Part shown: positions 11,601 to 14,600 of the stretch, one piece after another
Layout of the letters: each line of letters begins with the position of its first letter
Position numbering within the stretch: position 1 is the first letter of the stretch
Source: Escherichia coli
GTDB taxonomy: Bacteria; Pseudomonadota; Gammaproteobacteria; Enterobacterales; Enterobacteriaceae
DNA: 64,000 bases
Reading direction: 5' to 3' (one strand)
Assembly (NCBI RefSeq): GCF_044324785.1
Contig: NZ_CP172129.1
Program-made: the position numbers

Positions 11601-14600
11601 GCTGAAATCGAACTGGCATTTCATTCACCGGAAACAGTCGGAAGCTGGCATGCACGCTGGAGTGACCGGGTGGCAGAGCATGACCTGGAACCCCTGTTCT
11701 GGCAGTGGGGCGAGCGTTTTCCGTCACTGGCCGGAATGGAACGCTGGCAGTGGCAGGATATGCCATTCTGGCAGGTTATCGCGGAAGCCAGTCTGGCAGC
11801 CAGAGAGGCCGGTCATGCTGTCCGTGAGATGGAGCGGTGGATGGTGCCGAACAAACTCCGGGAGGCAGCGTGATGCGGCAATAATCACACGGATTACCCG
11901 TGAACTGGTTGAACGACCAGATTATTTTCAGGGAAAGTGAGTGTGGTCAGCGTGCAGGGATATGAGCTATGATGTGCCCGGCGCTTGAGGCTTTCTGCCT
12001 CATGACGTGAAGGTGGTTTGTTACCGTGTTGTGTGGCAGAAGGCAGAAAGCCCCGTAGTTAATTTTTCATTAACCCACGAGGCCCCCTGTATGTCTGATC
12101 AACAACAGTATGGCCTCTTACCGTGCTTAATGCAAGGAGGAGTAAACCATGAAACTACCGGGAAACGCCCTTATCTGGTGCGTATTAATCGTGTGCTGCA
12201 CGTTGTTAATATTCACACTCCTGACCCGGAATCGTCTGTGCGAAGTCCGGCTGAAGGACGGATACAGGGAGGTTACGGCAAGTTTGGCTTACGAATCCAG
12301 CGGTAAGTAGCAACCTGGAGGCGGGCGCAGGCCCGCCTTTTCAGGGCTGATGCTGGTCTGACTGCACTGAAGCGCCTTTATAAAGGGGCTGCTGGTTCGC
12401 CGGTGGCCCCTTTCTCCTTGCTGGCATTGTGCGGGCATGAACAACCAGACTGCCAGGAAGGCCGTTTCCCTCCGGGAACGGGGATGAACGTGCGCCTGCG
12501 GCGCCCGTTCTTTTCCCCCGCCTTCTCTGTTTATGACCTGTCAGAAATCACATCACCTTCCCTTTGATTATTCTCTTTTTCCTCCTGTTCTGACTCTGAT
12601 TACTGCTGCCCTGATTATTGTCTGTTTTGTTGTTCTCCTGCTTATGCCTTTTCCGGGCGTCCCCCTGGCGGGGCGGGCTGTCGTGAACGGAGCCAGCGGA
12701 GCTGTCTCCGCCCTGGCGGGCTTCCATCCCTGACGCGAAACCCCGGGCTTGCAGCGACCGTTCCGGTCGCGCCGCCTCTGTCGCGCCGTGGCCTGCGCTC
12801 CCGGCATCCCGGCAAAAGGCCGCCGGGATGTAAGGGGCAACGCCGTTTCGCAAACCGCGCTTCACGTCGTTGCGGCGGGTTCCTGCCCGTTGTTGTGTCC
12901 GGTGCCATTCACCTGTTTAAGCCCCTGTCGCCGGGAGCTGATACAGCCACAACCTGCCGCACTGACTGTCCAGGGTAAATGAACAGCCCACAAAATTTTT
13001 TACCCAAAACCCGGTAAAAAATTTTGCGTTCTGCCCAGGACAGGTGCGTCAGGCCGTGGCAGTGATGCCCCTTGCGGCGAAGGTTCTCAAACAGGTGATG
13101 GTGAATACCGGAGGGAACAAACGGCAGGTCCCCGCAAAACGTCAAAACCGCGGCTCCCGAAACTCAACAGATGATGGGGGCTGAAAACCAGAGAGAGGAG
13201 AAAGCAGGATGAGTACCCGAAATATCCACGTTAACATCGCGTCGTACACGCTTCTTGTTGCCGGGAAGAAAAAATACACCGGGGAAGAGTGGGACGTCCT
13301 GGAATTCAGCAGCCTGACTGAGCTGAAAAAATATCGCAAAAGCCACCCGGAAAAGATGGCCTTCAGCTATAGCTATGCGCTCAGCCGGGGTGTGGATACG
13401 CAGTTCCGCCATATCAACATTGCGGAAGCCGATCACTTCAAACAGTTCCTGCGTCAGATTAAGCGTACCGGCCTCGATATCCGGGCTATCTGCTGACCGG
13501 ATGTGATGAATATCCCTCCTGATTGTTGCAATCTTGTTAATGGAGATCGGGAGGGATGATATTAAGCGGAAAAATTTTTTATTAAATTTATTCTTTCATA
13601 AAGGAGTAGCTGTTATGCGATTAGCTTCCCGTTTTGGTCGGTATAATTCCATCCGCCGTGAACGTCCTTTAACGGATGATGAATTAATGCAGTTTGTGCC
13701 TTCGGTGTTTTCCGGTGATAAACATGAGTCCCGGAGTGAACGTTATACGTATATTCCAACAATCAATATCATCAATAAGTTACGTGATGAAGGTTTCCAG
13801 CCATTCTTTGCCTGTCAGAGTCGGGTTCGTGATTTGGGACGTCGCGAATACAGTAAACATATGTTACGTCTTCGCAGGGAAGGGCATATTAACGGGCAGG
13901 AAGTTCCTGAAATTATCCTGCTTAATTCACATGATGGTTCATCCAGTTATCAGATGATCCCCGGAATTTTTCGTTTTGTCTGCACAAATGGCCTGGTGTG
14001 CGGAAATAATTTTGGCGAAATCCGCGTTCCACATAAAGGTGATATTGTCGGGCAGGTTATCGAGGGAGCGTATGAAGTGCTCGGTGTCTTTGATAAGGTC
14101 ACTGATAATATGGAGGCGATGAAAGAAATTCATCTTAACAGTGACGAGCAACATTTATTTGGCAGAGCTGCACTGATGGTCAGGTATGAAGATGAAAATA
14201 AAACGCCGGTGACGCCTGAACAGATAATTACTCCCCGTCGTCGGGAGGATAAACAGAACGATCTCTGGACAACCTGGCAGCGGGTTCAGGAGAATATGAT
14301 AAAAGGTGGATTATCGGGGCGAAGTGCCTCCGGGAAAAATACCAGGACAAGAGCCATTACAGGTATTGATGGTGATATAAGAATCAACAAAGCATTATGG
14401 ATGATTGCCGAACAGTTCAGGGAGTGGAAGTCGTGATAATATAGGTAAAGCCCCGAAAAATTTTCGGGGCTTTACTTATATTGTCATCCTTCGGCATTGC
14501 TATGTCGTCTGATATGCCTCAATTTCATCAACTGGCTTTTCGGTAGTCTGTAAATATTGTGCCCGCGAAAAATGGTCTGGCAGGAGGCTACGCAGTTACC

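Follow-up and report, generated by a model that had tools for sequence, protein, structure and literature searches.

The DNA behind psiB and psiA in a 64,000-nt window of Escherichia coli contig NZ_CP172129.1 (the window being the whole stretch that was analysed) raises the question of whether it carries a complete type I toxin–antitoxin module of the hok/mok/sok kind and, if so, where the regulatory elements and the antisense gene lie. A sequence-only reading had proposed such a module at 12000–12345, at the end of the psiB–psiA block. Both the identity and the position are borne out: all defining sequence-level features are present and intact, and psiB (10720..11157) and psiA (11154..11873) lie immediately upstream. 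With a probability of roughly 93%, judged from sequence and predicted folds, we read 11944–12378 as an intact hok/mok/sok module for post-segregational killing. The proposed interval, however, cut off both ends, omitting the promoter, the translational activator (tac) and the fold-back inhibition element (fbi); the functional module probably occupies about 11944–12378, or extends to 12420 if a distal hairpin is included.

The Rfam model RF01794 (sok/hok leader), which is oriented in the hok sense and ends at the hok AUG, matched 11979..12151 over model positions 1–157 of 157, with 92.7 bits against a gathering cut-off of 59 (E = 1e-20). The open reading frames at the locus are undisrupted and free of IS insertions, and tblastn and Rfam searches of the window revealed no further hok copy, leaving a single one. 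Regulatory elements were placed by homology to the hok/sok (parB) system of plasmid R1, and we infer the transcription starts and RNA ends. Alignment with R1 hok/sok and with flm of plasmid F was collinear from end to end and placed the sok promoter, tac and fbi. A minus-strand promoter and an antisense-complementary region, whose absence would have spoken against the module, were looked for, and both are present at R1-homologous positions.

Toxin gene and leader reading frame

The toxin gene hok (12149..12310, plus strand) encodes 53 aa from an ATG start. This reading frame, as originally called, passes the curated family cut-offs, scoring 57.4 bits with Pfam HOK_GEF (cut-off 22) and 98 bits with the NCBIfam Hok-family toxin model NF007279 (cut-off 73). 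The protein has an N-terminal hydrophobic stretch at residues ~7–25 and all of the conserved Hok logo residues M1, C16, T18, L30, C31, E32 and E41 (bioRxiv 10.1101/2025.08.07.668861). Its Shine–Dalgarno sequence, AGGAGG (12135..12140, plus strand), can be read directly 8 nt 5′ of the ATG. A TACG motif is found at the Hok Y48 codon; local folding for a TadA-editing hairpin near this codon gave a fold no better than that of shuffled sequence.

The leader frame is a 71-aa, flmC-like mok (12091..12306, plus strand), matching NCBIfam PRK13720 with 152 bits (cut-off 110) and Pfam DUF5431 with 138 bits. Mechanically, the open reading frame extends upstream to a GTG at 12007 (99 aa); because the family models match residues 29–99 only, we assign the mok start to the ATG at 12091. 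The end at 12306 agrees with the mok-like second frame noted before, and hok, which starts 58 nt into mok (3n+1) and is out of frame with it, is overlapped by mok in all but its last 4 nt. The mok Shine–Dalgarno sequence, GAGG (12079..12082, plus strand), lies 8 nt 5′ of the mok ATG, is invariant in the homologue alignment and is homologous to R1 G105–G108 (PMC9841398).

Messenger RNA elements and predicted folds

A hok/mok promoter at 11944..11973 (plus strand), in which TGGTCA (11944–11949) and TATGAT (11968–11973) are separated by 18 nt, was detected by a promoter scan and coincides with that of R1 by homology. Its −10 hexamer is identical to that of R1 and the promoter region is 94–97% identical to R1 and F; mutations of R1 hok at −12, −11 and −7 abolish hok transcription (PMC9841398). 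The long leader that had been placed at about 11940..12148 is present, but by R1 homology it starts at 11980, and 11944–11973 is promoter. The full-length hok/mok mRNA of ~399 nt probably covers 11980..12378 (plus strand), with ends derived from R1 numbering; taking the first G of GGCGCTTGAGG as +1 agrees with the numbering published for R1 at G4–U6, A70–C72 and G105/A106.

Along this RNA, all on the plus strand, lie tac at the 5′ end (11980..11989), which pairs with fbi or ucb in the folds; the upstream complementary box ucb (12048..12056), the anti-Shine–Dalgarno element of mok, located by folds and R1 homology; the downstream complementary box dcb, GGCCUC (12112..12117), which pairs with the mok Shine–Dalgarno region GAGGCC (12079–12084); and fbi (12367..12376), which pairs with tac in both the minimum free energy (MFE) and centroid folds. 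Between dcb and fbi, a 3′ stem-loop, GGCGGGC-GCAG-GCCCGCC followed by UUUU (12320..12341, plus strand), folds with −24 kcal/mol (z = −4.6) and probably forms the end of the processed mRNA. It had been taken for a strong terminator; base for base, however, it matches the terminal stem-loop of the 3′-processed R1 hok mRNA (R1 nt 342–363), in which G345A and C358A abolish the truncated (processed, active) hok mRNA (PMC9841398). We therefore interpret 12320–12341 as a protective 3′ hairpin, past which the full-length transcript would have to continue to fbi. The primary transcript may end at the distal hairpin followed by UUUCUCCUU (12382..12420, plus strand), a candidate intrinsic terminator that folds with −23.8 kcal/mol (z = −3.8) and is 98–100% identical to R1 and F. 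A generic terminator scan missed both 3′ hairpins, which have too few T's.

The R1 −10 TATGAT, tac, ucb, mok Shine–Dalgarno, dcb, 3′ stem-loop and fbi are all present and collinear in the window, and the −10, tac, ucb, Shine–Dalgarno, stem-loop and fbi are identical in sequence. In R1 the promoter, the tac stem, the Shine–Dalgarno/anti-Shine–Dalgarno pairing and the 3′ stem-loop have been validated by mutation (PMC9841398), and support for fbi comes from earlier literature cited there.

Folding of the full-length RNA (11980–12378) gave an MFE of −163 kcal/mol (z = −4.7). In this closed state, recovered in both MFE and centroid predictions, tac nt 1–7 and 9–10 pair with fbi nt 388–397, and in the full-length fold ucb nt 71–77 pair with the mok Shine–Dalgarno region; the same program returned the same tac/fbi and ucb/Shine–Dalgarno closed fold for the R1 and F RNAs. 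Without the 3′ end, ucb (nt 69–75) pairs with tac, and the isolated 5′ 145 nt adopt the open state, with tac/ucb and Shine–Dalgarno/dcb pairing, in the window, R1 and F. The Shine–Dalgarno/dcb pairing forms a Sok-target hairpin at 12079–12118 (−15.1 kcal/mol, z = −3.7). The MFE fold of the whole truncated RNA (11980–12343) did not yield the tac/ucb pairing of the published open fold; because the 5′ 145 nt alone do open, equally in R1 and F, we put this failure down to the limitations of MFE prediction for RNAs of such length.

The consensus fold of 13 plasmid homologues, a set confined to relatives closer than srnB, pnd and chromosomal hok, keeps the tac/fbi and ucb/Shine–Dalgarno helices and contains 11 pairs with compensatory changes, all elsewhere than tac/fbi. 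Both tac and the fbi core AAGCGCC, which pairs with tac nt 1–7, are invariant in the 13 homologues, so covariation says nothing about this helix itself. In two IncI2 loci, differences immediately 5′ of the fbi core break one outer pair.

Candidate Sok RNA and the mechanism carried over from R1

The antisense gene, which the sequence-only reading had left without a precise location, can be assigned to about 12135..12040 of the minus strand. Its putative promoter (12107..12135, minus strand), TTGCAT (12135..12130) and CATACT (12112..12107) with a 17-nt spacer, was located by positional homology to the R1 motif TTGCGC-17-TATCCT, which we take to be the R1 sok promoter. The candidate agrees with the consensus at as many positions as the R1 motif does; none of the 13 homologues departs from TTGC in the −35 or from the A, T, C and T in the −10, and the first base of CATACT is not the consensus T. 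The corresponding hexamers of F are TTGCGC and TATCCT. A generic promoter scan did not report the sok promoter, because its −35 matches the consensus at only three of six positions.

The candidate Sok RNA, ~60 nt (12040..12100, minus strand; 5′ end placed to within ~3 nt and 3′ end to within ~5 nt), would begin with a purine 7–8 nt after the −10 and is fully complementary to the mok Shine–Dalgarno sequence and start codon. In its predicted fold (−26.3 kcal/mol, z = −5.2), an unpaired 5′ leader of 11 nt is followed by a long hairpin and then a U-rich tail, the same architecture as that of a Sok-like RNA rebuilt from the R1 sequence; R1 Sok is ~64 nt long, and the hairpin in the window is shorter than that of R1 by 5 nt of indels. 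Point mutations in the R1 promoter abolish Sok, which is as far as that evidence goes (PMC9841398). Taken with the Rfam E value of 1e-20 and the full-length RNA z of −4.7, the z of −5.2 for candidate Sok puts the features of the locus far beyond chance.

In the mechanism transferred from plasmid R1, set here against sequence and predicted folds alone, a weak promoter (11944–11973) would drive synthesis of a stable mRNA of ~400 nt from 11980. In the full-length molecule, tac at the 5′ end would pair with fbi (12367–12376) at the 3′ end and ucb would lock the mok ribosome-binding site, allowing neither translation nor Sok binding. Slow 3′ exonucleolytic trimming to the hairpin at 12320–12341 would remove fbi, after which tac/ucb and Shine–Dalgarno/dcb would pair and expose the mok start region. 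In plasmid-bearing cells, unstable Sok (~12100..12040), made from its own promoter (12135..12107), would bind the exposed region and block translation of mok and hence the coupled translation of hok, and the Sok/mRNA duplex would be cut by RNase III. On plasmid loss, Sok would decay first, and the processed mRNA would then be translated into a 53-aa membrane toxin that kills the cell.

Relatives, alternative readings and significance

In the leading region of a conjugative IncF plasmid, the module is the allele that occupies the flm position, 3′ of psiA. The flm locus of F (flmA/flmB/flmC, also stm) occupies the same site directly after psiB–psiA, and both loci lie upstream of a 95-aa ORF, a DUF932 gene, a transglycosylase gene and oriT/traM. 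The locus is read toward oriT, with the same gene order after psiB–psiA in F and R1, and lies ~3 kb from an F-type nic sequence (15341..15325, minus strand). Between F and the window, the promoter, 5′ leader, 3′ untranslated region with fbi and distal hairpin are 97–100% identical and both RNAs are predicted to adopt the same closed and open folds, whereas the region of the Sok 5′ leader and mok start is just 61% identical; FlmA (52 aa) and Hok (53 aa) share 38 of 53 residues, and the leader frames encode 70 aa in F and 71 aa here. R1 shows the same synteny after psiA, with ends 94–98% identical and a Hok identical at 37 of 53 residues. The centre of the locus is 61–75% identical to R1 and F, and therefore its quantitative behaviour and Sok specificity may differ. 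Because the Sok recognition leader has diverged from that of R1, cross-regulation with R1 Sok appears unlikely.

Closer relatives are 53-aa Hok alleles on IncF and IncI2 plasmids (for example pP136-4, pWS4437A1_52, p14EC029a and Klebsiella OW968354), which are identical at 44–50 of 53 residues, differ by point substitutions and have a 71-aa Mok. The sok −10 CATACT is common to four IncF-borne loci (pP136-4, pWS4437A1_52, Klebsiella OW968354 and Salmonella CP076091). The IncI2 copies sit in another plasmid context, beside a ProQ/FinO gene, with homology from the mRNA +1 onward only and an R1-type sok −10. The allele itself is widespread: many IncF plasmids of E. coli and Salmonella match the 547 bp around it with 100% identity, hundreds of public plasmid records carry the exact allele, and the exact Hok and Mok proteins are each encoded on at least 1000 public contigs, where the latter goes under the names Mok, FlmC or stable plasmid inheritance protein. 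From this recurrence of the exact DNA and proteins we conclude that the allele is maintained.

It is very improbable that the copy is intact in structure yet silent in function, as are several chromosomal hok loci that do not cause post-segregational killing. A wrong RNA ratio could result from the variant promoters of sok or hok or from divergence of the centre, and the 61–75% identity of the centre to R1 and F, the sok −10 CATACT in place of TATCCT, and the reported lack of killing by chromosomal hokA, hokB and hokC (bioRxiv 10.1101/2025.08.07.668861) all point that way. Against silence, the frames are undisrupted and free of IS insertions, every R1 regulatory element is either identical here or still able to pair, the 53-aa clade persists across IncF/IncI2 plasmids of E. 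coli, Klebsiella and Salmonella, with the same sok −10 in IncF-borne loci, the exact allele is carried by hundreds of plasmids, and 42 of the 45 Hok homologues tested were toxic (bioRxiv 10.1101/2025.08.07.668861). Nor do we give more than a minute probability to a main role, through the same RNA mechanism, early after conjugative entry or against phages rather than in segregational stability; abortive infection or guarding of the leading region against deletion may be examples. The location within the leading region, ~3 kb from the nic site, would suit such a role, as would the position of F flm between the repeats Frpo1 and Frpo2, for which Couturier et al. proposed a segment safeguard (PMC9849209), and the link drawn between leading-region hok/sok and early establishment (bioRxiv 10.1101/2025.08.07.668861). 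However, hok is reported not to be enriched near defence systems, and mechanism and family membership would stay unchanged in either case.

Compared with these, the reading of an intact post-segregational killing module stands, and one extension of it is doubtful but less remote: that the 53-aa allele forms a separate specificity group with a recombination-swapped core and, jointly, that hok-sense read-through couples the module to establishment. The swapped core may comprise the Sok recognition leader, the sok promoter and the toxin, which lie at 61–75% identity to R1/F between near-identical ends. Since the transferred strand serves as template for hok and not for sok, read-through could precede Sok in a new recipient: transcription from a single-strand promoter upstream of ssb–psiB–psiA could produce hok-sense RNA before any Sok.

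The hok/sok copy is real but ordinary, a textbook type I toxin–antitoxin system that was already known and whose allele stands in hundreds of public plasmid records, and it matters little as a discovery. Its practical use lies in annotation. RefSeq entries for the identical sequence give Hok as a 40-aa fragment and mok as an incomplete pseudogene and lack a Sok RNA feature, and the element map corrects all three faults. One RefSeq record also flags a frameshifted psiA, which is an annotation quirk, as in the window, F and R1 alike psiA is intact and runs for 239 aa to the same C terminus. The mosaic of conserved ends and a diverged toxin/antisense core offers a small lead on how plasmid antisense specificity diversifies. 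If the extension is true, the core swap would let the module escape silencing by the Sok/FlmB RNAs of co-resident F-like plasmids, and hok-sense RNA made before Sok would couple the module to plasmid establishment.

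An intact hok/mok/sok locus downstream of psiA

Directly downstream of the psiB–psiA block (psiB, 10720..11157; psiA, 11154..11873), where the sequence-only reading had placed it, lies a real, intact and wholly conventional hok/mok/sok module, which is already known. The Hok-family toxin frame proposed in that reading, ATG-initiated and encoding 53 aa (12149..12310, + strand), was found both in the sequence (read over 11700–12600) and in the ORF list, and its product scored 57.4 bits against Pfam HOK_GEF (cut-off, 22) and 98 bits against the NCBIfam Hok-family toxin model (cut-off, 73). 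Its Shine–Dalgarno (SD) sequence, AGGAGG, is at 12135–12140 (+). The overlapping mok-like frame ending at 12306 was also confirmed by the ORF list and by matches to mok/FlmC models. The mechanical ORF list gave it 99 aa from a GTG at 12007; because the family models cover just residues 29–99 (NCBIfam PRK13720, 152 bits versus a cut-off of 110; Pfam DUF5431, 138 bits), we assign the mok start to the ATG at 12091, yielding a 71-aa product (12091..12306, +) with the SD GAGG at 12079–12082 (+).

In RefSeq records of identical sequence, Hok is shortened to 40 aa by a start at an internal codon (window 12188), mok is labelled an 'incomplete' DUF5431 pseudogene (12091–12243), and a Sok RNA feature is absent. 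At Hok codon Y48, TAC followed by GAA (12290–12293) forms the TACG context seen in TadA A-to-I editing (Tyr to Cys), a recoding described for hokB–E and for 62% of Hok peptides (bioRxiv 10.1101/2025.08.07.668861). The sequence TGGCTTACGAATC at this site was invariant in 13 homologues, and the local fold of the Y48 region was no better than that of shuffled sequence.

The 547-bp segment 11874–12420 matched at least 5000 plasmid records and was 100% identical in 30 of 30 among the matches listed (E. coli and Salmonella), one of which, pECOS88, is typed IncFIB. A related locus was present in 3225 of 5426 complete E. coli genomes, with 276 records in that search at ≥99% identity, and several ~150-kb E. 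coli plasmids matched window positions 1–25000 at 100% identity. Proteins identical to Hok and Mok are each encoded on at least 1000 public contigs, where they are called Hok family toxin, Mok, FlmC or stable plasmid inheritance protein. The value of the finding beyond better annotation is low.

Regulatory elements, Sok and predicted folds

Element coordinates were placed by homology to plasmid R1 hok/sok, using the numbering of Le Rhun et al. 2022 (PMC9841398), in which +1 is the first G of GGCGCTTGAGG, the −10 TATGAT occupies −12 to −7, tac G4–U6 lies opposite A70–C72, the mok SD is at G105/A106, and G345 and C358 mark the 3′ stem. GGCGCTTGAGG occurs once in the window, setting the hok mRNA +1 at 11980 (+). 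The promoter (−35 TGGTCA, 11944–11949; −10 TATGAT, 11968–11973; 18-nt spacer) was also detected by the promoter scan, and tac (11980–11989), the upstream and downstream complementary boxes ucb (12048–12056) and dcb (12112–12117), and fbi (12367–12376) follow on the + strand. The only Rfam RF01794 ('sok') match in the 64-kb window, full length at 11979..12151 on the + strand (92.7 bits; gathering, 59; E = 1e-20), is to a model that begins at the 5′ end of the hok mRNA and stops at the hok AUG; what it describes is therefore the sense leader in which the Sok target lies, rather than the antisense gene itself.

The antisense gene, left unplaced in the sequence-only reading, is now located by a candidate promoter and a predicted complementary RNA, rather than the absence of both that would have argued against the module. 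TTGCAT-17 nt-CATACT (12135..12107, −) sits exactly at the position of TTGCGC-17-TATCCT, which we take to be the R1 sok promoter, and has an equal number of consensus matches; TTGC and 4/6 of the −10 positions were invariant across the 13 homologues. Initiation at a purine 7–8 nt downstream of the −10 (12100 or 12099) would yield a ~60-nt RNA. In this candidate Sok (−26.3 kcal/mol, z = −5.2), an 11-nt free 5′ leader precedes a long hairpin and a CUUUCU tail, and its sequence complements both the SD and the start codon of mok.

The 399-nt RNA 11980–12378 folded at −163 kcal/mol (z = −4.7), with nt 1–7 and 9–10 pairing with 388–397 (tac/fbi) and nt 71–77 (ucb) pairing with the mok SD; the same program gave the same pairings for the R1 and F RNAs. 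For the 5′ 145 nt without the 3′ end, tac/ucb and SD/dcb pairing, the published open state that is Sok-accessible and translatable, was predicted in all three loci (window, R1 and F). A consensus fold of the 13 plasmid homologues retained the helices, with compensatory changes in 11 pairs; tac/fbi was invariant in this set and hence carries no covariation information. When the truncated RNA was folded as a whole molecule, its MFE structure lacked tac/ucb, which we regard as a limit of MFE prediction. Element identity and the predicted alternative folds are the steps of the mechanism visible here; transcription starts and 3′ processing of the hok mRNA, Sok binding and RNase III cleavage, and mok–hok coupling and killing would proceed as in R1.

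Hairpins and limits of the module

The stem-loop GGCGGGC-GCAG-GCCCGCC-UUUU (12320–12341, +), identified by folding and R1 homology and previously read as a strong terminator, is instead identical at every base to the terminal stem of R1's processed mRNA, disruption of which removes that RNA (PMC9841398). Since fbi has to be included, the primary transcript must pass this hairpin, to a predicted full-length 3′ end at about 12378 (+). Just past fbi, a strong hairpin with a U-rich tail (12382–12420, +; −23.8 kcal/mol, z = −3.8), 98–100% identical to R1 and F, may, at 12382–12413, be the better intrinsic-terminator candidate. R1 has two full-length hok mRNA isoforms (PMC9841398), the longer of which might be accounted for by this hairpin. 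The functional module thus extends over ~11944–12378 (or 12420), beyond the 12000–12345 first proposed. Between psiA and the hok promoter, a weak terminator-like hairpin at 11905–11920 (CTGGTTGAACGACCAG then ATTATTTTCA) had no significant fold (z = −1.5) and its stem was not conserved in R1 or F, so transcription might continue from psiA into hok.

Leading-region context and a mosaic core

The sequence GTGGGGTGT|GGTGCTTT, which we take to be the F-type oriT nic, has an exact match on the minus strand at 15341..15325. It is thus the minus strand that is transferred and that serves as template for hok, mok, psiA and psiB, and a Sok template would arise in the recipient only after complementary-strand synthesis. 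Judged by position, the module is ~3 kb inside the leading region. Six other Rfam matches above the gathering score, AS-pc01 (4662–4763), traJ 5′ UTR/FinP (16121–16232), AS-traG (34697–34782), AS-traI (44508–44584), AS-pc02 (49519–49703) and the CopA replication-control RNA (51829–51919), jointly mark an IncF tra region and an FII-type replicon. In F, flmAB, functional homologues of hok/sok, sit between repeated single-strand promoters (Couturier et al. 2023, PMC9849209), and a recent survey catalogued 32,532 hok loci, enriched on large conjugative plasmids and present in leading regions (bioRxiv 10.1101/2025.08.07.668861).

Alignment with R1 hok/sok and F flm, the check proposed in the sequence-only reading, was collinear, with both loci at the same site after psiA. 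The window Hok is identical to R1 Hok at 37/53 and to FlmA at 38/53 residues, and falls within a 53-aa clade that is also represented on other plasmids of the IncF and IncI2 groups from E. coli, Klebsiella and Salmonella. Against R1 and F, the promoter, tac leader, 3′ UTR with fbi and distal hairpin were 94–100% identical, whereas identity fell to 61% in the Sok 5′ leader/mok start region, 75% in the sok promoter/hok SD region and 72% in the hok CDS. This mosaic across 11944–12420 suggests that the centre of the locus is an allelic cassette and may have a Sok specificity of its own; it likewise points to a toxin/antisense core that may have been swapped or be diverging fast. On the mcr-1-type IncI2 plasmids p14EC029a and p204A1-63K-mcr1, close 53-aa hok loci adjoin a ProQ/FinO-family gene, and homology to the window sets in precisely at the +1 of the hok mRNA and stops just past fbi; these limits hint that the transcribed hok unit may itself be mobile as a cassette.
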